In this document: piece after piece, positions 13,811 through 61,632 of the stretch | Layout: the number at the start of each line of letters is the position of its first letter | Position numbering within the stretch: position 1 is the stretch's first letter | Assembly: GCA_000092065.1 (NCBI GenBank) | Contig: CP000596.1 | Length of the DNA: 64,000 nucleotides | From: Ostreococcus lucimarinus | Lineage: Eukaryota | Strand: one strand, 5' to 3' | Made by a program: the position numbers and the translations under genes | The notes under the pieces: model-generated | The model's input: only the letters and a program-made list of their open reading frames with translations | Database searches by the model: none | What the model was told of the DNA's origin: nothing

Positions 13811-15289
13811 TCACGCGCAGTGCATTCGCGACACCGCGGCGGATAACCCCGTGCTCGATTTCTCTAGGTCGCCCAACGGACTGCGTCGCTCGATGAGTTC
13901 GTCGAAACTCATCTCCACGGTTTCGCCGTCGAACGCGCGCGGCGAATTTCCTTCCGAGCCTTGGAGGTAATCGAGCAGCTTTGCGCCGCCGGTTTGCGCG
14001 TGAATCGCTTCGCGGCCGCCTTCGTCGAGCGCGAGCACACTCAGCACACTGAGCGCGTCGTCGCGCGACGTGGCGCACCCTTCGCGCGCGAGCGCCATCA
14101 GTCGCGCGGTGACTCGATTCGTCATGTGCTCGCGGTTGCTCGGTTGCCACGCGAGCGCCCACAGCGCGAGCGCCGCGTCCGCCGCGGCGGGCTCGAGACT
14201 GTGCCGAAGCTCCAGGAGCGAGCTCAAAAGATCAATCATATCGTGAAAAAAATTCAGCCCACCGAGCGAGGACGCGGTGCCGTTCGCGTTCGCGAGCTTT
14301 TCCGCCATCGTCAACTCTTCGCGATCGCGGCGCGCCGAGGCCGAGTCCGAGTCCGAGTACCACCCGTCGTTCTGCGTCGTTCCGTTCATCGCCGACGCGC
14401 CGGCGTCGACGCCCGCGACGCTTCGCAGCGCGGCGAGCGACGCGTTGCGCTGTCGCTCCCCGCCCAGCGCGGCGGTGACGAGCGGTAACACCGCGCCGCA
14501 TCGCGCCACCGCCCTTCGGCCCGTCGCGCCCGAGCTCGCGATTCTTCCGAGCGCCGCGCTCGCCTCCCCGTGCGCCACCGTCGCCTCGCTCATCAGCACC
14601 TCCACCACGCTTCGCACCGCGGACTCCGTCGTCAAATCTAGCGCGCTCGGATCGCTCGAGATCGGAAACAGCGCCCTCGAATCGTACGCATCGCTTCGTC
14701 CGCTCAACCGCCGCAGCGCGTCCGCCGCGAATCGCGCCGTCTCGCTCGCCTCTCCCGTCTCCTCGCTCGCCGCTCGCGCGCACGCCTCGCTCAAATTTCC
14801 CAACACTCCGGACCTTATCATCATCTGGCACACGTCCGACGAGCTCGCCATCGCGCCCAGCGCTCTCGCCGCGTCCGCGCTCGTCCGTCCCGCGCCGTCT
14901 TCGTCCCGCAGCCTTTGCGCCAGCGCCGGGACGGCGCCCGCGCGCGCCGCGCGCCGCAGCGCGTCGTCGTTCGCCTTCAGCAGCGACAGCGCTCGAAGCG
15001 CGCCGACCTTGTCTTGCAACCCGACGTTTCGGACGACGACGGAGATGAGCGCGACGAGCATGGCGCCGCGCGGCGTCTTCGTGAACGGCGCGGCGGGACC
15101 TTCGGCGTCGACGCACAGGTTTCGGAGTTGGCGCACGGCGTCGGCGCCGTCCGGCGTCGACGCGCGCGCGCGCTGGACGAGGGCGTCGAGCGCGCGCGCG
15201 TCGTCCGTCATGTCGAGTCGACCCCGTCGACGCGCCGCGGTGACGTCGCGGGCGTCGAGGAGTGACGCGTCCACGCGAGTGGCGAGCAA
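13811..15289 (-). CDS. Hypothetical armadillo/HEAT-repeat-like protein.
   Basis: Repeated helical A/L-rich units (e.g. GAVPALAQRLRDED, GVLGNLSEACARAA). No catalytic motif. Confidence 0.4.
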   Translation of the reverse strand: MLATRVDASLLDARDVTAARRRGRLDMTDDARALDALVQRARASTPDGADAVRQLRNLCVDAEGPAAPFTKTPRGAMLVALISVVVRNVGLQDKVGALRALSLLKANDDALRRAARAGAVPALAQRLRDEDGAGRTSADAARALGAMASSSDVCQMMIRSGVLGNLSEACARAASEETGEASETARFAADALRRLSGRSDAYDSRALFPISSDPSALDLTTESAVRSVVEVLMSEATVAHGEASAALGRIASSGATGRRAVARCGAVLPLVTAALGGERQRNASLAALRSVAGVDAGASAMNGTTQNDGWYSDSDSASARRDREELTMAEKLANANGTASSLGGLNFFHDMIDLLSSLLELRHSLEPAAADAALALWALAWQPSNREHMTNRVTARLMALAREGCATSRDDALSVLSVLALDEGGREAIHAQTGGAKLLDYLQGSEGNSPRAFDGETVEMSFDELIERRSPLGDLEKSSTGLSAAVSRMHCA

Positions 15290-16377: not shown

Positions 16378-16635
16378 GACGACCGCGCGACGCGTTTTCG
16401 CGCGTCTCCCCGTCGCGCGCAAGGCCCCTTGCCGCGACGCGATGGTCGATCGCGATGTTCGATCGATCGAGCGCGACGTCGACGCGAACCTCGATCGAGG
16501 TTCGCGTCGCGGCCGTCGATCGACGCGGTGAGGTTCGCGCGATCGACGGCGTGGGCGTCGATCGACGCCGGCGTCGACCGACGGCGGCGGCGGCGCGCGC
16601 GCGGCGACAGTGCGCGCGCGCGAATCCCGATCGCG

Positions 16636-18270
16636 ATGTCGACGACGACGACGACGACGCGCGCGAGGGAGGGAAAGGCGCGGAAGCGCGACGCGGCGCG
16701 GGAGACGGAGACGGACGAGGCGCGCGCGCGACGTCGCGCGGCGAAGAAGGCGAAGAAGGCGAAGAGGGCGACGTCGGCGGCGACCGACGCGAGGGCGACG
16801 GCGGGGTCGGAGAGCGCGTCGATCGAGGCGCCGAAGACGCCGACGCTGAAACGAATCGCGTCCAAGGAAGACTTTCGAAGGGAACACGCGATCGAGATTC
16901 GGAACGCGTGCGAGAGGACGCGGGATTTGGAACCGTTTACGACGTTCGACGAGGCGGCGTTTCCGAAACCGCTGCGAGCGGCGCTGAAAGCGCAGGGATA
17001 CGACGCGCCGACGCCGATTCAGGCGGAAGCGTGGCCGATATTGCTGAAGGGGAAGGATGTGGTGGCGATCGCGAAGACGGGGTCGGGGAAGACGTGTGGG
17101 TTTTTGTTGCCGGCGCTGGCGAGCATCGTGGCGAGAGGATCGCAAAAGGCGCCGGAGATGCAGTTGCTCGATGGACGATGGCGTCCGGGGGCGGTGACGC
17201 CGACGGTCATCGTGTTAGCGCCAACGCGGGAGTTGGCGATTCAAATCCACGACGAGTGCGCGAAGTTTTGCCCCGCCGCGGGGTGCCGCTCGGCGGTGCT
17301 CTACGGCGGCGCCGCCAAGGGCGATCAGTTGCGCGCGTTGCGTTCGGGCGCCGACGTCGTCGTCGCCACGCCCGGGCGATTGAACGATTTTCTTGAACCA
17401 CCCCCGGGATTCACCGCGCCCGTGAGCGCGGTGAAGGCGTCGTACGTCGTCCTCGACGAGGCGGATCGAATGTTGGACATGGGATTTGAGCCGCAGATTA
17501 AAAAGATTTTCAAGCTCTGCCCGTCGGCGCGTCAGACGGTGATGTTCACCGCGACGTGGCCGAAAGCGGTGCAAAAGATTGCAGACTCTTTCACGACGAA
17601 GCCGATTCACATTCAAATCGGTAGCGGCGGCGATAAACTCACGGCGAATAAGTCGATTACGCAAACCGTCGAAGTACTCGAGGAGGAGGAAAAGTTTGAC
17701 CGTTGCGTCGCCATCCTGAAGAAGGAGCTCGGTAAGGACGACACGTGCATTATGTTTGCCGGCACAAAGCGTCGATGCGATTTTTTGGACCGCAGATTGA
17801 AGCAGTCTGGGTTTTCCTCCGCCGGCGCTATTCACGGCGACAAGGACCAATACGAGCGCGAGATGGTCCTCGACAACTTTCGTCGCGGTCGTGGCAATAT
17901 TCTCGTCGCCACTGACGTCGCTGCGCGTGGTTTAGACATTCCTGGCGTCGCAGCGGTTCTCGTGTACGATTTTCCGCTCCAAGTGGAGGATTACGTGCAC
18001 AGAATCGGTCGCACCGGACGCGCCGGGAAGGAGGGCAAGGCGTTCACCTTCTTCACTAAAGATAACCGTGGCGCCGCAAACGAGCTCATCGATATCCTCC
18101 AAGGAGCCGGACAAACCGTACCTTTGGCGCTCCAAGCGATGCAGCGCAAGGGCGGCGGCGGCGGAGGCGGCCGCGGTTGGTCGGGCGGCCGAGGCCGAGG
18201 CGGCGGCCGAGGCCGAGGCGGCGGTCGAGGAGGCGGCGGCAGATTCTCGCGCGGCAACAAAAAGTGGTGA
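16636..18270 (+). CDS. DBP2: DEAD-box ATP-dependent RNA helicase (DDX5/Dbp2-like) with a C-terminal RGG/GAR tail.
   Basis: Q motif and motif I (PTPIQAEAWPILLKGKDVVAIAKTGSGKT), DEAD (VLDEADRM), SAT (TATWP) and HRIGRTGRAG. The terminal GGGRGRGGGRGRGGGRGGGG tract is typical of the p68/Dbp2 subfamily. Start at MSTTTTTT (16636). Confidence 0.9.
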   Translation: MSTTTTTTRAREGKARKRDAARETETDEARARRRAAKKAKKAKRATSAATDARATAGSESASIEAPKTPTLKRIASKEDFRREHAIEIRNACERTRDLEPFTTFDEAAFPKPLRAALKAQGYDAPTPIQAEAWPILLKGKDVVAIAKTGSGKTCGFLLPALASIVARGSQKAPEMQLLDGRWRPGAVTPTVIVLAPTRELAIQIHDECAKFCPAAGCRSAVLYGGAAKGDQLRALRSGADVVVATPGRLNDFLEPPPGFTAPVSAVKASYVVLDEADRMLDMGFEPQIKKIFKLCPSARQTVMFTATWPKAVQKIADSFTTKPIHIQIGSGGDKLTANKSITQTVEVLEEEEKFDRCVAILKKELGKDDTCIMFAGTKRRCDFLDRRLKQSGFSSAGAIHGDKDQYEREMVLDNFRRGRGNILVATDVAARGLDIPGVAAVLVYDFPLQVEDYVHRIGRTGRAGKEGKAFTFFTKDNRGAANELIDILQGAGQTVPLALQAMQRKGGGGGGGRGWSGGRGRGGGRGRGGGRGGGGRFSRGNKKW

Positions 18271-18416
18271 TCGTCTTCGCGTCCCATTCATTCCGCATTA
18301 TTATATTCGTGTATTGAAATCGTAGTGTATTCGTTCCGCTCGAGAAACGGCGTCGCTCTTCGGCCGCTTCGACCTCGCCCCGGCGCCGTCCCCACAATCG
18401 GACGCGTCGGTCCGTC

Positions 18417-21400
18417 ATGCGCGCCGAAGCCGCGTCGCACGCGACAGCGCGAGAGCACATCGTGCGCGCGCGTCCACACCGCGCGCGTCGAGCGCCGGCG
18501 CGCACAGCTGCGCCATCGTCGTCGCGAATTCGTTCCGTGCGCGAGCCCAACTTGGATAGCGCAGACCGCGAAGAAATCGCCTCAAACGACGCGCTCAGGC
18601 GCGCTCGCGGCGAGACGAGCACGTCGAACGATGACGAGTCAACGATCGCGTCGTTTGTCGCGAGCGCAGGGGCTCGAGAGACGATAGATTTAGGCGCGCG
18701 CGCGTCGTTGGCTGCTGGATGGGACGCTCTGGCGAGACGAGTGCGAGACGCGCGGCGAGACGCCGATCGAATGCCGGCGTGCAAGTTTGACAGCGGGTGC
18801 TTGCGGTTCGTGATCGATGTGCCGCGAGACGCGCGGGCGCTGCGATGGGTGAGCGAGGTGAGCGGGAAGGTGAGGAGTGGAACGCCGGCGTTTTATTGGT
18901 CGCCACGAGCGAAGACGGCGAGCGGAAGCGCGGTGGGCAAGGGCGGATCAGCGTCGAAGGAGACGGCGATGGAAACGACGAGGAGTGATAAGTTGGATTT
19001 TGACGCCGCACGCGGGTCGCGCGCGGGTTTTGGGTCGTGCGCGACGTGGACGGACGCAGGGAACGAGGACGAGACGTCATTTCGGCGGCGCATCGCTTCG
19101 ATGCGGAGGTTTCTAAGCGAGCATAAAGACGCTCGTGCGGGGTCTCGAGTGTATGGCGCCGGAAGGTTCGATCCTGGTCGCGCGCCCGAGGAGGAGTGGG
19201 CGTCGTTCGGGACGCATTATTTCTTTTTGCCCACGCTCGAAGTCGTGGAGGGCGTCAAGAGCGCCACGTTGACGGTTTCCGTGGCGTGGGACGCGCGCGG
19301 TGAAGAAAACTGCGGTCCATCGGCCAAGTCACTCGTCCAAGCGCTTGATGATGCGTGCGAGACGCTCAAGCGCTCAATGGGTGTCGAAAAGAGTTCAAAC
19401 AAGGCGTTACCCCCGGGCGCGGCGCACGTCGTCGACCGTGCGCTGGTGCCCGATCAAGACGGATGGTCCAAAGACGTGTCCTCCGTCATCAGCCGCATTA
19501 GAGTATCGCGAGCATCCGTGAGCGCTAGCGTGCGGGACAAAGAGGATGCCTGGATCGACTTAGGGAGCAGCTTTGACGAATCAGATTCGCCAGATGTGCG
19601 AACGGCGTTAGAATCGCTTGGTCGCGCGGCTGGAGTCGAAGCCCCGAGCGCGGTTCTCGATCAATTCGAAGCGATGACGATGGCCATGGATGGCGGACTG
19701 TACAAAGATGACTCAACAATGGAGGGCATGGTCGACGCTTTGCTTCTCGGCGGTGAAACCGTCGATCCGTTACGAAAAGTCGTCTTGGCGCGGAGAAGCA
19801 AGCTCAACCTGAACACGCCTGTGGATACTTTTGCCTTGGTCTCGAGGCTGCAATCTCGAGATCCAGATGCGTATCAATTCGTTTTAAGACACCCCAACGG
19901 TGAGACCTTCCTAGGTTCGACGCCTGAGCGCTTGTTCTTATGTCAAGGGGGTCGCGCGGTGAGTGAAGCCGTGGCTGGCACGCGCGCCAGAGGCGCCGAC
20001 GACGGTGAAGACGCGGCTTTGGCGTATGACATGCTTCTGTCGCCCAAGGAGCACGAAGAGTTTGCAATCGTGCGTGAAGAAGTTCGTCGTGCACTGGGCG
20101 ATGTCGCCGACGGTGGAAATGATGGCGTGGAAGTTGAGCTTGAAAAAGGTATCTTGCGCAACGTTACCGTGCAACATTTATACTCGCGTCTCTCTGCGCC
20201 CTTGGCCAGCGGCAAGACAGAGGCTGATTTACTCGATGCGCTGCATCCCACGCCCGCGGTGTGTGGATACCCGCGCAAAGCTGCGCTAGACACGCTTCGT
20301 GCGGTGGAGTCGTTCGATCGCGGACTTTACTCGGGACCGCTCGGGTGGATAAGCGCGGATGGCGCTGAATTCGCCGTCGCCATTCGTTCAGCGCTGGTGC
20401 ACCCCGACGGTGATGAGGTGTCTTTGTACGCGGGCGTCGGTGTCGTCGGTTCCGCCAACGCGCAATCCGAATGGCACGAATTGAACTTGAAGACAAAACC
20501 CCTCGAGTCACTTCTTGCGCCGGTGACACCGCTCGCGAGCTTGCCAAATCCCAACGCAGCGTGGGCAACGATATTGATCGGTGAGCTCGTACGCGGCGGC
20601 GTGACGACATTCTGTATCGCTCCTGGAAGTCGTTCGACGCCTCTCGCACTTGCGGCTGAGAAACACGTCGAAGCAAACGTGGTCGTGTGTATTGACGAAC
20701 GTTCTCTTGGGTTTTATGCATTGGGATACGCAAAAGGCGCGGCCCAGCCCGCTGCGGTGATTTGCAGCAGCGGCACGGCTGTGGCTAATTTACTGCCATC
20801 CGTCGTCGAAGCGTCAGAAAGCTCAACCCCGTTATTATTACTCACCGCAGATCGACCGTATGAGTTGCGCCACACTGGTGCGAATCAAACGATTGACCAG
20901 GTGAAAATTTTTGGTTCGTACGCTCGATTCAACGCCGACTTGGCTCCACCCGGAGACGGCGCGCCTGCGCGCGCCTGCGCCACCATGGCTGCGACGGCGC
21001 TTCGATATTTGAGAGGAACGAACCCTGGACCGGTGCACCTAAACTGTGCTTTTCGCGAACCGCTCGGTCCGCAACGTGTGGACTGGGACTCAGCGGCTGC
21101 GCTTAAGGGGTTGGAGAAATGGGAAGAGTCGTCGACGCAGTTCACCATTGGCAATGCCACCGCAGGAACGATGCACGACGGCGGCGCCTGGCAAGCAGCG
21201 CTATCTCAAATCGCAAACGCTAAGCGCGGATTGCTAGTAGTTGGAAGTGGCTCGTCTGCAGCGGACTCAATCGCGGCGACTGCGATCGCTAAAACGCTGG
21301 GCTGGGCTGTCGCCGCCGACGCCACGAGCGGTATTCGCGTGGGCGCGGGTGAGGATGAATCCGTGCGTAAGATTCCTATGATCGATTACGTATTGGTGGA

Positions 21401-24400
21401 ACCGAGTGCGCATGATGCGTTGAGACCGGATGTTATCCTGCAAATTGGTGCCCGTTTGACGTCCAAGAGGCTATGCCAGTTCCTTGAAGCGAGCGCGATT
21501 GAGAATAATGCTGAGTGGATCGTCGTTGAGCCGACTCCGAACCGAGTGGATCCGGCGCATTGTGTGAGTGTTCGAGTTGAATCGTCCATCGGATACGCTT
21601 TGGAAGTTTTGGAGAGCGCGCTAAGTCACGAGAGCGGTTACGACACGAGTGACTCAAAAACATCATGCATCGCCTTTGCCGAGCGCGCCGTCGCTGTCGG
21701 CGCCGCAGTCGCACGCGAAGCCGCGATGGCCCTCAACGACATCACCGCCAACGAAGGTATGTCCGAGATGGCTGTCGCGATCGCCATCAGCGAGGGTCTA
21801 CCTGATTCTATGGGTTTCTTCTTGGGTAACTCCATGCCCATCCGCGATGTCGACGCATTCAGTGGAATCAAAGAATTCTCCGAAGGTTTAAATTTTGATC
21901 GTGAAGACTGCGCGACGTCGGCGTACGGAATTCCCGTCACGGCGAATCGAGGCGCGAGTGGTATTGACGGTGTGATATCTTCAGCCGCGGGATATGCTGC
22001 AGGCCTTGGACATCCGGTTACACTCATCATCGGCGATGTGTCGTTTCAGCATGATTCCAATGGACTACTGTTCCTTCGCGAGCGTCCCGGTCAACCACCG
22101 GTGACGGTCGTCGTCGTCAATAATGGCGGCGGTGGAATTTTCAATTTTTTACCCGTCGCCTCGCAGGTTGACGATAAGTCGTTCAATCGTTTGTTTGCCA
22201 CACCGCCGGATGTGTCCAGAAGAGGACTGTGCGAGGCTCATCGCGTCGCCTATGCGCATCCAACGTCGGTTAGTGAGTTCGGTGAGGCGCTCAGCGCTGC
22301 GTGGAACGAAAATCGTCACAGCGTCATCGAAGTGACCACGTCCCGCGCTCGAAATTTGATTCAGCACAAGTTAGTGCAGCGGCGATGTGCACGAGCCGCA
22401 CGACAAGCCCTTGAGCTAACGACTACGTCGACGTCAAAGACGATTCAGAGTATTGAAGTGGCTTCGTTCTCACTTCCTCTGAAGAAACCCACTACAGCGA
22501 ATGCGTCATCGACGACACGGGACGGATGGCTTCTGAAGGTCACCCTGAGCGATGGTGTCGTCGGTTACGGTGAGTGTTCTCCTCTGGATGGACTTCATCG
22601 CGAATCGTACGAAGAGAGCGGCGCGCAACTTTCCGTCGTCGCTTCGCTCATGAACAGCATGGAAGTTCCTACGAATGTTGCTCTGCTCAACGGCGCCTTT
22701 GCAGCCTGGATTGAAGATTGCGTCGGCGTGCGCTCGACGAGCGAGTTGTTTCCCACTGTTCGATTTGCGTTGGAGTCAGCAATTGCGAACGCGCTCGCCG
22801 CAAGCGAAGGCAAGACGCTTTCTCGCGTCATGACTGGCGACGAGGTGATGAACTCCGTCTCTGTGAATGGACTCGTTGACGCGACGACTGATGTCGCCGC
22901 TGCGCGCCGCGAAGCGCGCGCGCTCGTGGACGCCGGTTATACCTGTTTAAAAGTCAAAGTGGCTCGGGGTCTTGGTAGTGATGGCGCTCGAGCAGACGCG
23001 GAACGACTCGCTCAGATTCGAGACGAAGTCGGTCCCAGCGTCGCGCTCCGTGCTGATGCGAACAGGCGTTGGGATTTGACGGAAGCGCTCGATTTCGGCG
23101 CGCGAGCGCAAGAACTCAACGTGGGTTTGCAGTACGTCGAAGAACCCACTCGTGCGGCACATGAAGTCGCGGCGTTCCATTTCACCACCGGCATAGCCGT
23201 GGCTTTGGACGAGACCATCGACGACATTCTTTGCGAGTCTTCAAGCTTGGCCGAGGCAAGCGCAGCGATTTCACGCGTTGCGGATCAGTCCACAGGTATC
23301 GTAGCTGTGGTGCTCAAACCATCCGTCATTGGAGGTTTAGAAGCGACGTCTTTAATTGCGCGCATCGCAATGTCTCGAGGTGTCCGGCCCGTGATTTCTA
23401 GCGCGTTCGAAAGTGGCATTGGATTAAACGTCAGCGCTCACCTCGCGGCGACGCTCGACGATGTTTTGGCTCGTGAGATTCAAGCAGCCAGAGACTCTTT
23501 GGTGACGGGCGACGACACCGAGCGTCCGAACACGCTGGATATAAAACCTTTGATTTTGGCTTTAGACGCGCAACCAACATCGCACGGCCTAGGAACGGCG
23601 TCCTGGTTTGACGGCGACGTGATGTTCCCCGAAGTCGTCCCCGTCCGGAAAGGAAGCGACGGGATGTCCATACACTTACTCGAAGATACCGACAAGACTA
23701 AACGTCAGACATCAGTGGTATCCATGTTCCAGGATGTTTCGAAGCGTTGGGGTGAAGATTCCACAATCACGGTTGAAACATCGAATGGAATTTACGAGGT
23801 ACAGTGCGTCGAGCGCACTCCAAGCGGAGGCAACTCGAGCGGCGAAACGATCGTACTATTGCATGGATTCATGGGATCGAGCGAAGATTGGGATATCGTT
23901 GCCCGCGGTCTGACCGTTCGTAATAACGCTCGAGTGATCGCAATCGATTTGCCCGCTCACGGACGAACGACGTGTACGCCGCATCGAGGGAAATCCATGC
24001 GCGATTGCCTGCGCGTGGAAGCCATGCGAGATGTAGTCGCCGCAGCGATGACCAAGCTCGGATGTCCCAACGAATGTACGCACGTTGTCGCTTATAGCAT
24101 GGGTGCACGCATTGCACTTACTCTCGACGAATCAAGTCTGAAGTCTATCGTCTCCATCGGCGGTTCTCCGGGATTGTGCGGGGAAGACGCGCGAGTCGCG
24201 CGGGTCGCTCAGGACGACGACTTAGCCGCCGCTTTACTCAAGGGTGATGATGCGCGTGAGTTCGCCAAAGTTTGGTATCGACGAGGTTTGTTCTCTACTC
24301 TCGTCGCTCATCCACGATTCGGTGGCGTCAATGGGCTCGCCGAACGTCGCGGATCAGTCATTGGGACGAACGCAGAGGCGCTCGCTGCGTGCCTCGCCGC

Positions 24401-24656
24401 CGCCTCACCCGGACGTCAAATCGAGGGTTGGTCGACGCTTTGTCGTCTTCGCGGTAAGCTCACGATGATCGTGGGCGACAAGGATGAAAAGTTCAAATCG
24501 ATATCGCGCAAGATGCAAGACGCCATGAGTGAAGGGGTGGTAGACGCGGCGCCGTGCAAAGTATTTATCGTTCCTCGATGCGGACACGCGGCGCATTTGG
24601 AAGCGCCTGAGTCCGTCGTCGCGCGCGTTCTCGAGGCAATCGACGCGCAGCAGTAG
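18417..24656 (+). CDS. PHYLLO: PHYLLO tetramodular phylloquinone-biosynthesis protein: MenF (isochorismate synthase), MenD (SEPHCHC synthase), MenC (o-succinylbenzoate synthase) and MenH (alpha/beta hydrolase) in one 2079-aa ORF.
   Basis: The N-terminal chorismate-binding domain appears complete (PERLF, GTRARG, HPTPAVCGYP, GLYSGPLGW, AGVGVVGSANAQSEW). A TPP-dependent MenD core follows (WATILIGELVRGGVTTFCIAPGSRSTPL, GDVSFQHD). Then an enolase-superfamily MenC (KVKVARG, LDETI), and an alpha/beta hydrolase module with VLLHGFMGS. The module order matches the plant/algal PHYLLO locus. Confidence 0.9.
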   Translation: MRAEAASHATAREHIVRARPHRARRAPARTAAPSSSRIRSVREPNLDSADREEIASNDALRRARGETSTSNDDESTIASFVASAGARETIDLGARASLAAGWDALARRVRDARRDADRMPACKFDSGCLRFVIDVPRDARALRWVSEVSGKVRSGTPAFYWSPRAKTASGSAVGKGGSASKETAMETTRSDKLDFDAARGSRAGFGSCATWTDAGNEDETSFRRRIASMRRFLSEHKDARAGSRVYGAGRFDPGRAPEEEWASFGTHYFFLPTLEVVEGVKSATLTVSVAWDARGEENCGPSAKSLVQALDDACETLKRSMGVEKSSNKALPPGAAHVVDRALVPDQDGWSKDVSSVISRIRVSRASVSASVRDKEDAWIDLGSSFDESDSPDVRTALESLGRAAGVEAPSAVLDQFEAMTMAMDGGLYKDDSTMEGMVDALLLGGETVDPLRKVVLARRSKLNLNTPVDTFALVSRLQSRDPDAYQFVLRHPNGETFLGSTPERLFLCQGGRAVSEAVAGTRARGADDGEDAALAYDMLLSPKEHEEFAIVREEVRRALGDVADGGNDGVEVELEKGILRNVTVQHLYSRLSAPLASGKTEADLLDALHPTPAVCGYPRKAALDTLRAVESFDRGLYSGPLGWISADGAEFAVAIRSALVHPDGDEVSLYAGVGVVGSANAQSEWHELNLKTKPLESLLAPVTPLASLPNPNAAWATILIGELVRGGVTTFCIAPGSRSTPLALAAEKHVEANVVVCIDERSLGFYALGYAKGAAQPAAVICSSGTAVANLLPSVVEASESSTPLLLLTADRPYELRHTGANQTIDQVKIFGSYARFNADLAPPGDGAPARACATMAATALRYLRGTNPGPVHLNCAFREPLGPQRVDWDSAAALKGLEKWEESSTQFTIGNATAGTMHDGGAWQAALSQIANAKRGLLVVGSGSSAADSIAATAIAKTLGWAVAADATSGIRVGAGEDESVRKIPMIDYVLVEPSAHDALRPDVILQIGARLTSKRLCQFLEASAIENNAEWIVVEPTPNRVDPAHCVSVRVESSIGYALEVLESALSHESGYDTSDSKTSCIAFAERAVAVGAAVAREAAMALNDITANEGMSEMAVAIAISEGLPDSMGFFLGNSMPIRDVDAFSGIKEFSEGLNFDREDCATSAYGIPVTANRGASGIDGVISSAAGYAAGLGHPVTLIIGDVSFQHDSNGLLFLRERPGQPPVTVVVVNNGGGGIFNFLPVASQVDDKSFNRLFATPPDVSRRGLCEAHRVAYAHPTSVSEFGEALSAAWNENRHSVIEVTTSRARNLIQHKLVQRRCARAARQALELTTTSTSKTIQSIEVASFSLPLKKPTTANASSTTRDGWLLKVTLSDGVVGYGECSPLDGLHRESYEESGAQLSVVASLMNSMEVPTNVALLNGAFAAWIEDCVGVRSTSELFPTVRFALESAIANALAASEGKTLSRVMTGDEVMNSVSVNGLVDATTDVAAARREARALVDAGYTCLKVKVARGLGSDGARADAERLAQIRDEVGPSVALRADANRRWDLTEALDFGARAQELNVGLQYVEEPTRAAHEVAAFHFTTGIAVALDETIDDILCESSSLAEASAAISRVADQSTGIVAVVLKPSVIGGLEATSLIARIAMSRGVRPVISSAFESGIGLNVSAHLAATLDDVLAREIQAARDSLVTGDDTERPNTLDIKPLILALDAQPTSHGLGTASWFDGDVMFPEVVPVRKGSDGMSIHLLEDTDKTKRQTSVVSMFQDVSKRWGEDSTITVETSNGIYEVQCVERTPSGGNSSGETIVLLHGFMGSSEDWDIVARGLTVRNNARVIAIDLPAHGRTTCTPHRGKSMRDCLRVEAMRDVVAAAMTKLGCPNECTHVVAYSMGARIALTLDESSLKSIVSIGGSPGLCGEDARVARVAQDDDLAAALLKGDDAREFAKVWYRRGLFSTLVAHPRFGGVNGLAERRGSVIGTNAEALAACLAAASPGRQIEGWSTLCRLRGKLTMIVGDKDEKFKSISRKMQDAMSEGVVDAAPCKVFIVPRCGHAAHLEAPESVVARVLEAIDAQQ

Positions 24657-24746: not shown

Positions 24747-25470
24747 TTAATCCTTCTTCCCGAACAAGGAGAACGGGTTGAATTTCTTGCCCTCGAGCGG
24801 ATCCTTCATCTTAACAGGGCCCTTGGACATAGACTTCGCGAAGCGGCTCGTGCCGCCCACCGTCTTGTTCAACGCCGCGGTCTTCTTCGCCATCTCCTTG
24901 CGCTTCGCCTCGGCCTTCACCGCCGCCGCCTTCTTCGCTTCAGCCGCCTTCGCCGCCGCCGCCTTGCTCTTCTCCGCGAGCGCCTTGGACTTGGCCTTCG
25001 CGTCCTCGGCCTTCTTGCGCGCGGCTTCTTGGTTCTTCTTCATCATCTCACGGCGGTTGGACGTGTCGATGGTCTTACCAGCCTGTGGTTATCTCGCGAA
25101 TCGTTCGCGTCAGTCAGTCCTCGGCTCGCGCTCGAAAAGATCTTCCCCAGGGTGTCCCGCGCGGGACTGATCTTGACCATATCCAGGGCGCCCGCGTCGC
25201 CGCGCGAGCCCTTCGCGGCGGTCTCGTGCAAATACGCGAGGCGGCACGAAACCTTCGCGCCGTGCGCGCGCGCGTGAGCGACGCTGACACCGCGATCGCG
25301 CGCGCGCGTCGCACGAATTCCGCTCGACGCGTCGAGTGGATAAAGAGCGCGCGAGAGACCAGACGACGCGCGCCGCGCACCTTGACGACGAGACCGCGGC
25401 GCTGCGACTTGGCGGGCTTAGTCGCCGTGAGCGCGCGGGGGGCGGTGATCTTGGACGACAGGGCGAACAT
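24747..25470 (-). CDS. Small Lys/Ala-rich protein with a transit-peptide-like N-terminus, two exons: complement(join(24747..25082,25381..25470)).
   Basis: Exon 1 is MFALSSKITAPRALTATKPAKSQRRGLVVK and ends at a GTGCGC donor. The 298-nt intron has a CTGACTGACG branch 25 nt before CCACAG. Exon 2 AGKTIDTSNRREMMKKNQEAARKKAEDAKAKSK... is K/A-rich and ends KFNPFSLFGKKD. The identity is not recognised; the intron assignment is moderate confidence. Confidence 0.4.
25083..25380 (-). other. Inferred spliceosomal intron of the K/A-rich protein gene (298 nt).
   Basis: GTGCGC donor after codon 30. CTGACTGACG branch, CCACAG acceptor. Confidence 0.45.
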
Positions 25471-32831: not shown

Positions 32832-35423
32832 TCACGCACGCATAGCTTTGAGCTGGTTGTAACGGATGAGAATGGCGTCGAGCGAGCGTCCCTCGCATGC
32901 GGCGCCGGGCTTGAGGAGACTTTCGAACGGTTCGTTGAAAGCAGCGCAGGCAATGAGGGCGTTATCCTGAACTTGGGTGAAAGGGTTGCGAACGACCGGA
33001 TCGTCCTCGCATTCCGAATCGGATAGGTCGTCGCGTTCCATGCCGAATCGCCGCCGCAACGGGACGTCGTCGGCGTCGGAATCCGATGCGGAGTCCGCGA
33101 TTTCTTCTCGCACGACGGTATTTTTACGTTTGCCGCGCGCAGTCGCGGCTGATTTAGGCCCGCGATTTACGGTCTGAGACGTTCGACCGGAGCTTGCGTT
33201 CTCGTGATCTCGCCAACGCTTGTGCACAGCAAACGGAACGCGGTCTTTCAAGCGCGAACACACAAAATCCCACAATTTTTTGTCATACTTGCCCAGATCT
33301 CTCGCGTTTGCGCTCTTCCATTCGACTTCGTTCAACGCTCGCTCGATGATATTGATCTCGTTTTCATCCAGCGCTCGCGTGGCGTGGTCGTACTCTCTCC
33401 GCACAGCGATTCCAATTTCCGTGTTCGCGTACATTTGCGCCTTTCGCAGTTGCAGCGCTCGCTCGCGTATGTTGGTTGGCTTGGCGTTCACGAGGAGCTG
33501 CGTCGCGATCGTGCGCCAGTCAGAACTGTAGCGGCGGATGCCCAATACTATCAACCACTCCTCGGCAGGAGTGAAGATGTCGTGTTTCGATCTCGCCTTC
33601 AACTTGTGCCGAACCAGCGGCGACAGCGGCGCAGCCCCGATGAGAAGGCTCGGATCAGGAGATATTTCCGGTAAGAACCGCTTCGTCAACTCGAAGACTT
33701 CGCGTGGCACCGGTTGCCACACGTAAAGATCACGTTCGAGTTCAGCTCGATTTCGCCCAAGCCTCACTGGTATAATGCGTTTCGTCACAGGATCTTTAAT
33801 GTGCTTGTCCGCTTCAAGTTTGTCGTACATGTCCATCACTTCAGTCCACGTCTTCGCGTGCGGTCTAAACAAATCATCCACTCGTACGTGTTGCTCTGAA
33901 TTCGGTGCGAAAGCTGCGTTTGATGTCGCGTCGTGGGTCATCTCAAACATTTGCACCGGATTTCTCCACAACCTCGGCGGCGGCGCGAAAGCGAGTCTGC
34001 TCATTGCGTGCACGAAATTGAACGCACATCGAAGAGGTGCGCAATCAAGAACAGTTTGCACGCCTCGCTTTTCCGTGCACACGTGCCAAGGCGCGTCATC
34101 GCCGCCGTATAGCGATTTAGCGTGCCTCTTTCTTTTCACGTCGCGCAGGCGCCTATCTTGCAACACTCCCGCGCGTTGCAAAATTGTGATGTTCACGAGT
34201 GTCGCGCTAGTCACTTCCACGAGATCTTCTCTCGTGGCACACACGCTATACGTTTGGAACAATAGTTGCGTGTGTTGGTGTATCTGTTTCGCGAGCGTCT
34301 TAAACTGCGCTGATGTCATCGACGACAATTTTTCGATCACCTTGTGATTTTTTTGAAGCAACTGTCGGCTCCTTTTTCGCTTCTCTCGCAGCGTTTTACC
34401 ATCGCCCGTGCGATCGCTTGGTTCGCTGATTCGGTCAGATCGTCGCACGATTGACGGTGGTGCGCTCGCATCGCCTCGTCTGATCGCATCTAAGCGTTCT
34501 CTACGCAGAATGTACTCGTATTCTGCAGCTCTGGGATTTTCGTCGGCGTAATCGTCGTCGTTCTCATCGTCTTCGTCCTCGTCTTCGTTCGCGTTCGTCC
34601 CGCGCCCCGAGGCTGATTGCTGGTGTAAATCGCCAAATTCAACACTCGCATCATTCAGTGTCGCCAGAAAACGATCGTACTCGGCCCCATCATCGAGCCA
34701 ATCGTACTCTGGCTCGGCGTCTGGCAACGCGAGCTCGAGCTCAGCCAACTCGCGCTCCTCTATCGTCCCCGTCTTCGCCCGCGTACGCCGCGCGATGGCG
34801 TTCAACAACATCTCCTCGTCGTCGTCGTCGTCGAAGAATCCATCGAACCCTAAATCTACTGCCGCCCCCGCCGCGCGCTTCGCCGGCGAGTTCCCCAACG
34901 ACGCCGCGCCCCTGGAATCGTCGTCGAAAACCGACGCAAACGCCGCGTTCGCCGCCCCTCCCCGTCGCCGTCTACCACCACCAGGCGCCCACTGCGCCGC
35001 GCGCGCGGCATCTGTGCCACTGAAACGCATCATCTGCATCGTGCCCATCCCCCTGCGCGGCGATCCCGCGTCAACCTCGCTCGCCGCTTCCACCACGGCG
35101 TCGAAGTCTTCGTCCTCCAGCGACACATCACTATCGCTCTCCGTGTCCTCTAAATACTCGCGCACCGGTCGCGCCAGCGCGCGCGCGTCGTCGTCGTCAT
35201 CGACTCCGTCGCTCTCGTCGCTCTCGTCGCCTAAAGACCCGTCCTCGCTCGCGCTCTCGTCGTTGAATTCCCAATCCAAACTCCCGAGCGCGGGACCGGG
35301 TCGGTAGTCTTCGTCGTCTAAATCGTCGTCGGAATCGATCGCCAGCGCGTCGAGGGTCGGATTGACGCGCGTCGTGTTCGTCGTCTTCGATTTCCCGCGC
35401 GGCGAGCGCGCGGGAGAGTCCAT
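32832..35423 (-). CDS. Large acidic nuclear protein with SANT/Myb-like domain(s). Function unknown.
   Basis: Myb/SANT-like tryptophan spacing in FTPAEEWLIVLGIRRYSSDWRTIATQLLVNAKPTNIRERALQL, with a second weaker unit. Long D/E-rich tracts. Start guessed at MDSPARSPRGK (35423). The ORF extends to 35525. Confidence 0.4.
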   Translation of the reverse strand: MDSPARSPRGKSKTTNTTRVNPTLDALAIDSDDDLDDEDYRPGPALGSLDWEFNDESASEDGSLGDESDESDGVDDDDDARALARPVREYLEDTESDSDVSLEDEDFDAVVEAASEVDAGSPRRGMGTMQMMRFSGTDAARAAQWAPGGGRRRRGGAANAAFASVFDDDSRGAASLGNSPAKRAAGAAVDLGFDGFFDDDDDEEMLLNAIARRTRAKTGTIEERELAELELALPDAEPEYDWLDDGAEYDRFLATLNDASVEFGDLHQQSASGRGTNANEDEDEDDENDDDYADENPRAAEYEYILRRERLDAIRRGDASAPPSIVRRSDRISEPSDRTGDGKTLREKRKRSRQLLQKNHKVIEKLSSMTSAQFKTLAKQIHQHTQLLFQTYSVCATREDLVEVTSATLVNITILQRAGVLQDRRLRDVKRKRHAKSLYGGDDAPWHVCTEKRGVQTVLDCAPLRCAFNFVHAMSRLAFAPPPRLWRNPVQMFEMTHDATSNAAFAPNSEQHVRVDDLFRPHAKTWTEVMDMYDKLEADKHIKDPVTKRIIPVRLGRNRAELERDLYVWQPVPREVFELTKRFLPEISPDPSLLIGAAPLSPLVRHKLKARSKHDIFTPAEEWLIVLGIRRYSSDWRTIATQLLVNAKPTNIRERALQLRKAQMYANTEIGIAVRREYDHATRALDENEINIIERALNEVEWKSANARDLGKYDKKLWDFVCSRLKDRVPFAVHKRWRDHENASSGRTSQTVNRGPKSAATARGKRKNTVVREEIADSASDSDADDVPLRRRFGMERDDLSDSECEDDPVVRNPFTQVQDNALIACAAFNEPFESLLKPGAACEGRSLDAILIRYNQLKAMRA

Positions 35424-35553
35424 CGCGACGACGAGTGCGGATGAGCGCGAGCGGCGAGCTGTCGCGTTTGAATTCGACTCAACAAGAGGCGCCGCGTCGA
35501 CGTGGGAATGATTGATGTGATACAACTACATACAGCGCAACGCGTACGAGGGA

Positions 35554-50248: not shown

Positions 50249-51889
50249 TCACCTCGGTCCTCCGCGTTCCGCGTCCTCGTCAAACGTCGCGGGGATCAAG
50301 TCTTCTTGAAACGCGCCGCGAAAATTGCCGCTCAAAAACTCACTGAACCAATTTCTCGAAGCACCGGTGCGCGTTCGGCTCGATGTGCCGAATTCACCTT
50401 CGAATCCATCTCGAAACGCTTCGCTGAAAGCGTCTTCGGCGCCGTCGCTCGGCCAACTTTGCTCATCTTCAACCTCGAAAAAGTCATCGGCGCGCGCCGA
50501 AGCGTTCGACGACGACGCACTTGTCGTCCCCAGCCACTCGTCAAACGATACGTCCGCTGAGTAAGGTTTCTCCTGGACTTTTGCCGTCGTCGCTGTCGTC
50601 GTCGTCGAATCCACGTCCTTCGTCAAGGCATCAACATCGATGATTCGCACGAGACCCCCGCCCTCGTCCTCCGCAGACGGCGGGCGGTTCGACGCGCGCG
50701 TTTGCGAGAAGTCGACCTCGGCGACGTCGTCTTCGAAATCAAAGTCACCAGCGTTGAGATTGAATGCTTTTTTGAACTCATCCAACGCTTCGTCGCCCCA
50801 CTGGCGAACTTCGACGGTGACATCTTGCGCCGCGCGAAACGCCTCCTTCGCCTTTAAACGATCTCCAAACGCCTCACTAAAAACTTCCGCACCGCGCTCG
50901 AACGCCTTGGCGTCGAATGCGTCGAACGCGCCGTCGCCATAGATGTCTTCGTACTCAAAATCCGCCGATCGTCGTTTCCGCTCGCGCGCCGCCGCGCGCC
51001 GTCGCTCGTCGAAATCTTCTCGCCGCCGACGCCCTCGCGGCGTCGAATCCGTGGCGTACTCGTACATTCCAGCCGCTCGACCCTTCGCGTCGGCTCCGTC
51101 GTCGTTCCCTAGAGCCACGGCCAAGCACAGCACAGCACCGATGACGACAACGCCGTAAATCAATCGACTCGCCGACAACAGCGCGAAGGCACCCCATCCG
51201 CACGCCACGATGAAACGTATGACGTACATCGGCACCGAGCGCGGCAGTAACACATCCAGCGCGCGCGTGAACGCCTCGCTCACGTTCGTCAGCGCCACAT
51301 ACGCGAGTTTCAGTATGTTTGCGCTCATCTCAAAACCTGACCCACGATCGCGCGCGTCTCTCGTCCTCGACGGCTCGTATTCGTCGCGTTCGTCGAACTC
51401 GTCGCCGCCGCGTCTCCCTCGCGCGCGTCCCGAAAAGTCAAAGTCACCTCGCTCGCGTCCTTCGCCGAATCGTCCGCGCGGTGCGCGCTCGAACACGTCG
51501 AAGTCGCCTTCGTCCCACGACGCGTACGAACTGCTCGTCCCCGTCGACGACGACGCTCTCGCGCGCGCGTTCTCTTTCCGAATGGGCGCGCGCGTTGACA
51601 ACGGGCGCATGACGACGACGCGGGTCGTCGCTCGCGCGACGCCGCGCGCGACGCCGCGCGCGGGCGCGCGCGCGCGGTGTCGCGACGCCGATAACATCGT
51701 CGTCGCGCGCGCGGTCGACATGACGCGACACGCGTCGCAGAGTCGCGTCGGCTCGGCGCGCGTCGCAGAGTCGGCGCGGACGACGTCGCCAGACGACGGC
51801 GCGCGACGCGACGATCGCGAGGAGCCGTGGAATCGAGACCGCGTCCATCGCGCGCGTCGACGGTGATGTCCGAACGCGTCGACGCGCAC
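50249..51889 (-). CDS. Hypothetical acidic protein with one or two transmembrane segments and an R/A-rich N-terminus.
   Basis: Hydrophobic block MYVIRFIVACGWGAFALLSASRLIYGVVVIGAVLCLAVAL, followed by a D/E/F-rich region (DFDFEDDVAEVDF). No family recognised. Confidence 0.4.
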   Translation of the reverse strand: MRVDAFGHHRRRARWTRSRFHGSSRSSRRAPSSGDVVRADSATRAEPTRLCDACRVMSTARATTMLSASRHRARAPARGVARGVARATTRVVVMRPLSTRAPIRKENARARASSSTGTSSSYASWDEGDFDVFERAPRGRFGEGRERGDFDFSGRARGRRGGDEFDERDEYEPSRTRDARDRGSGFEMSANILKLAYVALTNVSEAFTRALDVLLPRSVPMYVIRFIVACGWGAFALLSASRLIYGVVVIGAVLCLAVALGNDDGADAKGRAAGMYEYATDSTPRGRRRREDFDERRRAAARERKRRSADFEYEDIYGDGAFDAFDAKAFERGAEVFSEAFGDRLKAKEAFRAAQDVTVEVRQWGDEALDEFKKAFNLNAGDFDFEDDVAEVDFSQTRASNRPPSAEDEGGGLVRIIDVDALTKDVDSTTTTATTAKVQEKPYSADVSFDEWLGTTSASSSNASARADDFFEVEDEQSWPSDGAEDAFSEAFRDGFEGEFGTSSRTRTGASRNWFSEFLSGNFRGAFQEDLIPATFDEDAERGGPR

Positions 51890-55550: not shown

Positions 55551-57083
55551 TTATCGCACGCACTTCTCTTCGAATAATTCCTGCACTCGGTGCTGCAACG
55601 CGCGGTCGATGTCCAACTTTGCTTGCGTCGTGATGGATGGGTGCACGAGCCACGCCGAGTCTACGTTTTGTAAGACGTAGTGGTCGATGATGGTGTCGTC
55701 CGTTCCAGTGAACAACACGGAGATCAACTCATCGTACGCTGTGTTATGCAGCAAATACATGTCGCTCGACCTCAAATCGCACCCACCGGCGTTTAGGCGA
55801 CACAGTTGCCCCTCGGCGCGCGTGTTGACGCAGTGACACTGCGTCGGGCACACCAAATCGTCGCGAGTGGCTGTGGTGACTTCCACCATCCCACCAGTCG
55901 ATGACTTTTTAATCTCAAACTTTTCAAATAAGTGCGGCCGCACCGACGGACGAATCAATTTCCACGCCGGCGGTCCTCCGCCACCCGAGCCGAGCTTCAC
56001 GCGCCCCAAACTCGCCGACTCGCCTTCGAATTCGCCGCCGATGAGCGTCAAGAGGTCAGCTTCGGTCTCGGAATGTACCTCGACGTCGGCGTTGACTACA
56101 GCATCCTCCTCCATGACGGTAATATGCTCAAATCCGTTTTCCTTCGCGTGCTTCGCGATCATCCCGTGCGACATGGACACGCGGGTGTAATGAGATTTGT
56201 ACCAAACGCCCGTCGACGCAGCCGTGCACCTGTCCAGCACCTTGCCGCTCACGCATGTCGCCTTGCCTTCAAATTCTTTCGGCACGCGAATCGTGGTGTT
56301 TACGGACGCGCAATTCTGCGTCGTCAATATATAAATTTGATCCGTGGCGGCGATGACGCGATTGATAGGGGTGTCATTCGATGCTTCCGCGATCGCGGGG
56401 GTGAACGCCACTTCGCACAGCATGTCTGAGAGCGAGCTCAGATGTATGTGTCGTCTCGCGCGCGCCTGTGGCGTCTCACCAGCAAACATCAGTGCGGCCA
56501 CGCACGCACACGCACACATGACCATCGTTATTGCGCTCCATCTCGCGCGTTTCAGTGGCTGAACCCATCGCCGAGACTCGCGCCCCAGCGTTTCGCTTGG
56601 CGCGGCTTCGGCGCCTCCTCGCGCCTCCTCGCGCCGCGACGTGGTCGCGAACGACGTCGCGGCGACGTATCGCTCGCCACCAGCGAACAAAGAAGCCACG
56701 CTCATCGCTCGTTCGCCCTCTGTGGTTCGTTTCGTCGTCCCGAGCAGCGACTCGGTCTCGTCCAACTCTCGAGCCAACGCTTCGAGCATCTCTTGCCTGG
56801 ACACGTCCACCTTACCAGTCGGCGTCGGACGGCGAACAATCGCCGCGGACGCCTCGCGCGCGCTCTCACGCTCGTGTTCTTTCGTTTCTCTCGCCCGCAC
56901 GTCGCTCACATCGCGCGAGTTCACGATCGACGCCTCCGCGAACGCGGTAACACCATCGGACGTCGTCGCGACGGCGTCGCGCGCACTTTCGAGCGTCGCC
57001 TCGAGCGCGCGTGCGCGGGACGTGCCGGCGTCAACATCGCGCGCTTTCGCGTTCGCGATCGCGTTCGCGTTCGCGCGTGACAT
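55551..57083 (-). CDS. Hypothetical type II membrane protein with a C-terminal globular domain, possibly a glycosyltransferase-like fold.
   Basis: Single hydrophobic anchor ITMVMCACACVAALMFA after an acidic N-terminal region. The C-terminal domain has conserved Cys and an EEDAV-type acidic motif. No confident family. Confidence 0.35.
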   Translation of the reverse strand: MSRANANAIANAKARDVDAGTSRARALEATLESARDAVATTSDGVTAFAEASIVNSRDVSDVRARETKEHERESAREASAAIVRRPTPTGKVDVSRQEMLEALARELDETESLLGTTKRTTEGERAMSVASLFAGGERYVAATSFATTSRREEARGGAEAAPSETLGRESRRWVQPLKRARWSAITMVMCACACVAALMFAGETPQARARRHIHLSSLSDMLCEVAFTPAIAEASNDTPINRVIAATDQIYILTTQNCASVNTTIRVPKEFEGKATCVSGKVLDRCTAASTGVWYKSHYTRVSMSHGMIAKHAKENGFEHITVMEEDAVVNADVEVHSETEADLLTLIGGEFEGESASLGRVKLGSGGGGPPAWKLIRPSVRPHLFEKFEIKKSSTGGMVEVTTATRDDLVCPTQCHCVNTRAEGQLCRLNAGGCDLRSSDMYLLHNTAYDELISVLFTGTDDTIIDHYVLQNVDSAWLVHPSITTQAKLDIDRALQHRVQELFEEKCVR

Positions 57084-60391: not shown

Positions 60392-61588
60392 CTATGTTCC
60401 TATTCGCCTACGCACTAAATCGGGACCGCGAGCGCGCAATTCGTGTACGTCCTTCACGCCGAGCAAACCCATCGCGCGTTTCGTCTCGCTCGTGAGTATT
60501 TCAAACGCTTTGTTTACGCCCGCGCCTTCGCCCGCGGCGAGACCGTACAAGTACGCCTTACCCACCCCCACGGCATTCGCTCCGAGAGCGAGAGCCTTGA
60601 CGACATCGACGCCACGCATGATGCCACCGTCGTAAATCACCTCCGCTTCCTCGCCGACGGCTTCGCGGATGGACGACAAGACGTCAATGGGCGCGACGGC
60701 GCTCTCCAACTGTCGAGCGCCGTGCGACGTCACCCACACCGCGTCGTACCCAATATCTCGAGCGCGCACCGCGTCGTCGGGACGCAGAATCCCTTTCATC
60801 GCCATCGGACCATCCCACTGCGCGCGAAACCACTCGGCGTCTTTCCAATCAAACGCAGCGTCGAACTGTTTTGTCGCAAATTCTGCGATTGGCAGCGCGT
60901 CTCTGAGCAAACCGTCGCGCTTCAAATCGCGAATGAGCGCGTACTCGATGCGCTGTGATATGAGATATTCAAGCGTCCACCTCGGCGCCGCGAGAGCTGC
61001 GAGAGTTGTCCGTAAAGAGTGTTTGGGCGGTACACTGAATGAGTTTCGCACGTCTCGCTCCCGATTTCCGAACCACGTCAAGTCCGTCGTCAACGCGACT
61101 GACGAGAATCCAGCCTCCTTGGCGCTCGCCAAGACGTCTCGCATCAGCTCTCGATCTTTCCACACGTACACCTGGAACATTTTCCGATCGGCTTTCAACG
61201 TCGCGACGCCCTCCGCGATGTCTCGCGGAGAGCGGGTGCCGAGAGTGCTCAACGCAAATACTCTGTTGCTCGTCGAGCACGCCTCGGCGGTCGCCAACTC
61301 GCCGCGCCGCGGTGCCCATAACGCGTGACCGGCGGTCGGCGATGGGAAAATGCACTCCGTGTTCGTGTGTCCTAAAAACGACGTCTCGAGCGACACGTCG
61401 TCGACGCCGCGACACGTCGACGGGTGAAACTCTAATTCATCGAACGCCGCGCTCGCGCGACGCAGCGCCTTCTCATCGTCCGCACCGCCATCTAAATAGT
61501 CGAACGCGAACGAAGGTTGGACCTTGCGCGCGAGCGCGCGCAAGTCTCGCGCGTTCAAGCACGCGCGCAGCGCTTTGGACGACGCCAT
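60392..61588 (-). CDS. GOX: FMN-dependent (S)-2-hydroxy-acid oxidase/dehydrogenase (glycolate oxidase / L-lactate dehydrogenase LldD family).
   Basis: FAFDYLDGGADDE substrate-entry motif, catalytic TSHGARQLE (SNHGARQLD) and the C-terminal GANAVGVGKAYLYGLA. Start at MASSKAL (61588). The ORF extends to 61909. Confidence 0.85.
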   Translation of the reverse strand: MASSKALRACLNARDLRALARKVQPSFAFDYLDGGADDEKALRRASAAFDELEFHPSTCRGVDDVSLETSFLGHTNTECIFPSPTAGHALWAPRRGELATAEACSTSNRVFALSTLGTRSPRDIAEGVATLKADRKMFQVYVWKDRELMRDVLASAKEAGFSSVALTTDLTWFGNRERDVRNSFSVPPKHSLRTTLAALAAPRWTLEYLISQRIEYALIRDLKRDGLLRDALPIAEFATKQFDAAFDWKDAEWFRAQWDGPMAMKGILRPDDAVRARDIGYDAVWVTSHGARQLESAVAPIDVLSSIREAVGEEAEVIYDGGIMRGVDVVKALALGANAVGVGKAYLYGLAAGEGAGVNKAFEILTSETKRAMGLLGVKDVHELRARGPDLVRRRIGT

Positions 61589-61632
61589 GCGACGGCGTGT
61601 GTCGCCAGTGTTCGCCTCGCTTCGAGCGACGC

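Follow-up and report, generated by a model that had tools for sequence, protein, structure and literature searches.

The 64,000-nucleotide stretch of Ostreococcus lucimarinus contig CP000596.1 analysed here (hereafter the window) contains at positions 18417..24656 of the plus strand an open reading frame (ORF) which is very probably the nuclear PHYLLO gene of this alga, coding for one polypeptide of 2079 amino acids (aa) with four enzyme modules that would lead from chorismate to o-succinylbenzoate and is probably imported into the plastid. Pfam and NCBIfam searches showed that the four men-homologous modules lie in one frame in the order MenF-MenD-MenC-MenH (F-D-C-H), separated by linkers of approximately 10, 15 and 45-60 aa. 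These domains, together with homologues of solved structure (E = 1e-85 for MenD, 1e-67 for Arabidopsis isochorismate synthase (ICS) ICS1 and 1e-17 for MenC), bear out the four-module PHYLLO proposed in an earlier sequence-only reading of this DNA. Homology to proteins already named PHYLLO, as read from search scores, was found for Selaginella XP_002986213.2 (E = 2.9e-216) as well as for Citrus and Nymphaea proteins. The features of the locus, with the evidence for their limits, are as follows.

18417..24656 (+): complete PHYLLO coding sequence; ORF, identical product in 389 assembly blocks.
18417..18701 (+): N-terminal extension, aa 1-95, a putative plastid transit peptide and a variable linker; composition.
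18702..19454 (+): MenF N-terminal half, aa ~96-346; match to chain residues 45-252 of Arabidopsis ICS1 (AtICS1, 8w6v) and to TIGR00543 positions 2-104.
19455..19766 (+): insertion of ~105 residues between the MenF halves, aa ~347-450; falls between AtICS1 residues 252 and 257.
19767..20531 (+): MenF chorismate-binding catalytic half, aa ~451-705; K454, E504, E548, E688, A614, R657.
20532..22421 (+): MenD, a thiamine diphosphate (ThDP)-dependent SEPHCHC synthase, aa ~706-1335; TIGR00173, matches to MenD structures in PDB (E = 1e-67 to 1e-85), residue mapping.
22422..23651 (+): MenC, an o-succinylbenzoate synthase of the enolase superfamily, aa ~1336-1745; K1512-x-K1514, D1547, E1575, D1598, K1634.
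23652..23783 (+): MenC-MenH linker, aa ~1746-1789, variable in the family; family alignment.
23784..24653 (+): MenH, an alpha/beta-hydrolase SHCHC synthase, aa ~1790-2079; catalytic triad S1894-D2023-H2057.

The ORF consists of 2079 codons, starts with ATG, ends with TAG and has no internal stop according to the ORF listing and its translation; it lies where the sequence-only reading had placed it, and the two MenF segments HPTPAVCGYP and AGVGVVGSANAQSEW are found in it at aa 610-619 and aa 672-686, respectively. No intron is needed for the complete coding sequence, so the description of the gene as intronless holds, although not as a remarkable trait, since almost every neighbouring gene in the window likewise consists of one long ORF. 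The earliest possible in-frame start is the ATG at 18417, located 146 nucleotides past the stop codon of the upstream DEAD-box helicase gene, and it is the sole in-frame Met before the block conserved in the family (from about aa 87 onward), the next Met being residue 119. Downstream of the TAG stop come an AT-rich tail and then a converging small gene. It is implausible that the ORF arose by chance, as 2079 codons with four above-threshold enzyme domains far exceed what chance would give. The nuclear origin of the gene in a plastid-bearing eukaryote is indicated by its identity with the O. lucimarinus protein XP_001421925.1 and by the eukaryotic genes flanking it, namely those for eIF4B, COG6, DENN, CTNNBL and XRN. 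Three minus-strand ORFs run antisense to the locus (18086-18784, 18595-19080 and 20164-20733); their products are Arg/Pro/Ser-rich, as expected from off-frame translation of GC-rich coding DNA.

The MenF module scores 287 bits with the NCBIfam isochorismate synthase model isochor_syn TIGR00543 (cutoff 224.75), and the Pfam Chorismate_bind domain was found at aa 452-692 with 227 bits and is complete, covering profile positions 21-257 of 257. MenD is represented by TIGR00173 at aa 716-1195 (400 bits against a cutoff of 244) and by three TPP_enzyme domains, MenC by MenC_N and MR_MLE_C at aa 1346-1695 (91.5 bits for MR_MLE_C), and MenH by TIGR03695 and Abhydrolase_6/1 at aa 1810-2075, with TIGR03695 being the top-scoring hydrolase model.

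For residue mapping, each module was aligned to its own counterpart among the E. coli K-12 men operon enzymes using MAFFT in pairwise mode, and a family alignment of 12 homologues with 46-75% identity was made. The functional roles given below are those we take the E. coli residues to have in view of published structures. In MenF, E. coli K190, E240, E284, H318, A344, R387 and E416 correspond to K454, E504, E548, H587, A614, R657 and E688 of PHYLLO, of which K454 is presumably the general base, E504 the general acid, and E548 and E688 the Mg2+ ligands. In MenD, residues S32, R33, E55, R107, N117, Q118, K292, S391, R395, R413, I418, D442, N469, G471, F475 and L478 of the E. coli enzyme are identical in PHYLLO, and the set expected of a MenD protein is present, including E761, R739, R813, R1143, R1178 and the GDVS...NN motif (D1207, N1236); we assume that E761 serves in ThDP activation, that GDVS...NN is the Mg2+/ThDP motif and that the Arg residues bind substrate. 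In MenC, E. coli D161, E190, D213 and K235 correspond to D1547, E1575, D1598 and K1634, and K133 corresponds to K1514 within CLKVKVARG, the KxK motif of MenC being K1512/K1514 in both the HMMER and family alignments. The pairwise MAFFT alignment placed K133 at D1527 instead, which was rejected as a local misalignment across an insertion. K1514 and K1634 are taken to be the acid/base pair and D1547, E1575 and D1598 the metal ligands. MenH has the complete Ser-Asp-His triad, with E. coli S86, D210 and H232 corresponding to S1894, D2023 and H2057, and Y85, R90, R124, W147 and R168 to Y1893, R1898, R1929, W1953 and R1978. Thus, every residue mapped from the four E. coli enzymes is conserved in PHYLLO, and all the catalytic positions are invariant in the 12-sequence family alignment.

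The state of the MenF module deserves separate consideration, as the sequence-only reading held that a full chorismate-binding module was retained here. In a profile-to-PDB sequence search the module matched the solved AtICS1 with E = 1.5e-91. The family MenF profile aligned to AtICS1 in two pieces, chain residues 45-252 with profile positions 29-257 (E = 5e-17) and chain residues 257-508 with profile positions 363-619 (E = 1e-71), and TIGR00543 positions 2-104 matched the N-terminal slice of the module with E = 4.8e-6, whereas the Pfam chorismate-binding domain spans the C-terminal half alone. Taken together, the two-piece match and the N-terminal TIGR00543 match mean that both halves of MenF are present. 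What would be expected of an isochorismate synthase, i.e. sequence matches to both halves of the chorismate-utilising fold, the general-base Lys, the general-acid Glu and the two Mg2+-binding Glu, can be recognised in the translation, and the module looks complete, being of full length relative to AtICS1 apart from the ~105-residue insertion, and catalytically competent. The claim of retention is upheld by the match to AtICS1 over both halves and by the kept catalytic residues; the loss of the C-terminal ones, which would have spoken against it, is not observed, with K454, E504, E548, R657 and E688 all in place.

To judge from the module itself, it is very unlikely that it is a degenerate inactive remnant and that isochorismate is supplied by a separate ICS gene. 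Such a non-functional MenF remnant is indeed carried by angiosperm PHYLLO proteins (PMC2412073, PMC5299476). In the O. lucimarinus protein, however, Chorismate_bind is complete, TIGR00543 exceeds its curated cutoff and the N-terminal half of MenF is present as well. Likewise there, and invariant in the family, are the general base and acid, the two Mg2+ ligands and R657. Even less probable is the idea that the MenF-like module acts as a synthase of salicylate, anthranilate or aminodeoxychorismate and that the protein feeds another pathway. The chorismate-binding fold is common to all these enzymes, and weak matches to them did appear in the NCBIfam scan, but the top matches are isochorismate synthases (AtICS1 with E = 1.5e-91, Yersinia and E. 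coli MenF, and TIGR00543 over its cutoff), while the salicylate synthase model TIGR03494 reaches 86 where 325 is required, and the models for TrpE and PabB fall far under their cutoffs. Moreover, K454 provides the general-base Lys typical of ICS, Ala at the position of MenF A344 (A614) is what we take to be the ICS state, and the fusion partner MenD, which uses isochorismate as its substrate, likewise points to an isochorismate synthase.

The possibility that errors of assembly or sequencing created the single ORF by joining adjacent men genes which lie in different frames or are split by stops, as the disagreement between gene models (only a 259-aa partial one in GenBank, and 1835-aa versions in JGI/IMG) might suggest, can be considered effectively refuted already, since exactly this 2079-aa product, with the same genes on either side, has been called in 389 blocks from independent assemblies (TARA, JGI, ENA, Logan), relatives with 41-75% identity share the uninterrupted fusion, and the MenF C-terminal half (MenF-C) is joined directly to MenD in 40 of 43 long representatives of other lineages. 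Synteny around the product was identical in the six places shown among these blocks, and no displacement of the modules into different frames on resequencing, which the sequence-only reading had named as a possible refutation, was seen. As to the gene models themselves, XP_001421925.1/ABP00219.1 was the only NCBI protein found for the locus; this 'predicted protein, partial' of 259 aa from O. lucimarinus CCE9901 is 100% identical over its whole length to aa 438-696 of PHYLLO (window positions 19728-20504) and spans the catalytic half of MenF alone; JGI/IMG carries both 1835-aa and 2079-aa versions. The reference annotation thus appears to under-call the gene, and pipelines using the GenBank protein set would miss the full four-module enzyme.

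The proposed function of the 2079-aa polypeptide is as follows. It would probably be imported into the plastid by means of its Arg/Ala/Ser-rich N-terminus. MenF would then convert chorismate to isochorismate in a Mg2+-dependent reaction in which K454 activates water and E504 acts as the acid; MenD with thiamine diphosphate would add a succinic-semialdehyde unit from 2-oxoglutarate to give SEPHCHC; MenH would eliminate pyruvate to give SHCHC through the Ser1894-Asp2023-His2057 triad; and MenC would dehydrate SHCHC, yielding o-succinylbenzoate, by means of K1514/K1634 and a Mg2+ site made up of D1547, E1575 and D1598. Along the polypeptide the modules stand in the order F-D-C-H, which differs from that of the reactions, F-D-H-C. 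These would be the first four steps in the synthesis of phylloquinone (vitamin K1) for photosystem I, and the later ones would be carried out by separate MenE, MenB, MenA and MenG enzymes encoded elsewhere. The N-terminus is a putative plastid transit peptide: its first 40 residues contain 25% R+K, 5% D+E, 28% Ala and 17% S+T and are followed by an acidic stretch, and the 95-aa extension preceding the MenF fold is poorly conserved in the family yet present in all its members. The enzyme activities, the plastid targeting, the existence of one unprocessed protein and any channelling of substrates are all predicted from sequence.

Several points weigh against this assignment. TIGR01927 gives MenC 127.6 bits, slightly short of its cutoff of 130.55, and TIGR03695 gives MenH 147.6 bits, which is below the equivalog cutoff of 208.55. 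The AlphaFold2 model of MenF aa 90-705, built from a 10-sequence alignment, was unusable (mean pLDDT 39, pTM 0.34), so that the N-terminal half of MenF is assigned by its profile match and not at the level of fold. The transit peptide is suggested by composition, and the activity, expression and localisation proposed for the protein in O. lucimarinus are deduced from its sequence. With regard to the score shortfalls, Citrus PHYLLO also remains below the MenH cutoff (156.4) and passes that for MenC (132.9), and the same is true of the Chlorokybus homologue (176.2 for MenH, with the MenC cutoff passed), so we read these shortfalls as reflecting thresholds calibrated on bacteria.

An initial word-indexed homology search returned 21 close relatives and no plants; other lineages were reached by an exhaustive HMMER search with aa 100-1299, and the module content was scored in those 43 hits that had 1500 aa or more. 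Proteins from Citrus, Nymphaea, Stephania, Selaginella, Chlorokybus, Picocystis and Chloropicon served as the plant and algal comparison set in place of Arabidopsis and Chlamydomonas PHYLLO. The F-D-C-H order with an intact MenF-C is found in Picocystis, Chloropicon, the basal streptophyte Chlorokybus and the lycophyte Selaginella (RefSeq 'protein PHYLLO, chloroplastic'), the F-D-H-C order in the Nannochloropsis cluster and about 20 further representatives, and a D-C-H arrangement with zero MenF-C coverage in Citrus ('protein PHYLLO'), Nymphaea ('PHYLLO protein') and Stephania. Since MenF-C is intact in green algae, Chlorokybus and Selaginella and absent from the angiosperms, the intact form would be the ancestral one. 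The census of 43 long relatives thus supports the view, put forward in the sequence-only reading, that the intact module is the ancestral algal state, and it likewise supports the loss having been a land-plant event. The F-D-H-C fusions, including that of Nannochloropsis oceanica, are widespread in metagenomes, and their order matches the order reported for diatoms in the literature.

In Selaginella moellendorffii (XP_002986213.2, 1877 aa) the C-terminus of MenF is intact and fused to MenD, with a coverage of 0.95. In older Selaginella models the locus is divided between an ICS of 507 aa (EFJ12745.1) and a protein of 1298 aa (EFJ12744.1). Either the fission of MenF took place after the lycophytes had split off, or the Selaginella RefSeq model merges neighbouring genes. 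The fission has been dated to 'early in vascular plant evolution' (PMC2412073), and a post-lycophyte fission would be later than that.

The ~105-residue insertion (aa ~347-450) between the MenF halves is absent from AtICS1. It carries the motif R-x2-L-x2-LGRAAGVEAP, which in the form R-x2-L-x2-LG(R/K)xxG(V/L)EAP is invariant in the 12 homologues and was found only in the close Ostreococcus/Mamiellophyceae-like set (P0001-P0062 in our numbering); a regex search did not find it in PHYLLO of Chlorokybus, Selaginella, Picocystis, Chloropicon or the Nannochloropsis type. Compared with other green algal PHYLLO proteins, the Ostreococcus/Mamiellophyceae-like versions are thus distinguished by a conserved insertion of which no discussion was found in the literature. 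If it were a functional addition, e.g. one serving for docking between modules or for regulation, and not a neutral loop at the surface, it would mark a structurally distinct PHYLLO subclass, but we consider this unlikely.

Green algal PHYLLO with an intact MenF, that of O. lucimarinus included, has been known since 2006-2008, and the interpretation in the sequence-only reading restates published work (PMC2412073, PMC5299476). PHYLLO was retrieved from O. lucimarinus and O. tauri by Gross et al. 2008, who also described the arrangements menFDCH in green algae and moss, menF5'DCH in higher plants and menFDHC-duf in diatoms (PMC2412073). The locus is the same gene as the green algal PHYLLO of O. 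lucimarinus, O. tauri and Chlamydomonas reinhardtii (Cre16.g659050; Gross et al. 2006, PMC2412073, PMC5299476), with which it shares the F-D-C-H order, nuclear encoding and the full chorismate-binding MenF, and nothing substantial differs. Angiosperm PHYLLO (Arabidopsis At1g68890, Citrus sinensis KAH9772169.1, Nymphaea thermarum KAF3773187.1, Stephania KAK9105308.1) has orthologous MenD-MenC-MenH in the same order but zero chorismate-binding coverage, with the ICS activity coming from the separate genes ICS1/ICS2 (PMC5299476), whereas here MenF is intact and fused. Arabidopsis PHYLLO lacks the chorismate-binding C-terminus and Chlamydomonas PHYLLO has a full MENF domain; the need for PHYLLO in making phylloquinone and in the functioning of photosystem I has been demonstrated in both organisms (PMC5299476), and a scheme of the pathway and its compartments is available (PMC6189191).

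Stramenopile PHYLLO (diatoms; Nannochloropsis oceanica, menFDHC(+duf)) is likewise a fusion with an intact MenF C-terminus joined to MenD, its order being F-D-H-C instead of F-D-C-H (PMC2412073). The four enzymes are also encoded by the bacterial men operon (menF-menD-menH-menB-menC-menE in E. coli K-12), with 24-34% identity to the individual modules and with their catalytic residues unchanged, but in E. coli, where menaquinone is made, as well as in the plastid men clusters of Cyanidiales, the genes are separate and unfused. The statement that PHYLLO is a hallmark of plastid-bearing eukaryotes stands with the exception of Cyanidiales, which have separate plastid-encoded men genes (PMC2412073). 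PHYLLO is a textbook example of endosymbiotic operon fusion with subsequent fission in higher plants; beyond correct annotation the importance of the present locus is small, its loose ends being the fragmentary GenBank model and the clade-specific MenF insertion.

The neighbours of PHYLLO in the window are eukaryotic housekeeping genes coding for eIF4B, patatin, citrate synthase, tRNase Z, DEAD-box helicase, CTNNBL, XRN, SHMT, RETICULATA, ChaC, DENN, COG6, uridine kinase/UPRT and CRAL-TRIO proteins; other men genes and tRNAs were looked for and none were found within the window. The DEAD-box helicase, 16429-18270 (+), ends in a C-terminal tail rich in Gly/Arg (RGG), its N-terminal part is rich in Arg, and its listed TTG is probably not the true start. 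For five long ORFs of 492-897 aa no match to Pfam was obtained at E <= 1e-5, namely 13814-15289 (-), 32835-35525 (-), 50252-51889 (-), 55554-57083 (-) and 61039-63561 (+); some of them overlap long ORFs on the opposite strand, and not all need be genes. The small ORF converging on the 3' end of PHYLLO, 24747-25046 (-), codes for a Lys/Ala-rich protein of 99 aa with no Pfam match, and the minus-strand sequence upstream of it, …ccacag/GCTGG (the slash marking the putative junction), resembles a splice acceptor, so that a 5' intron is possible.

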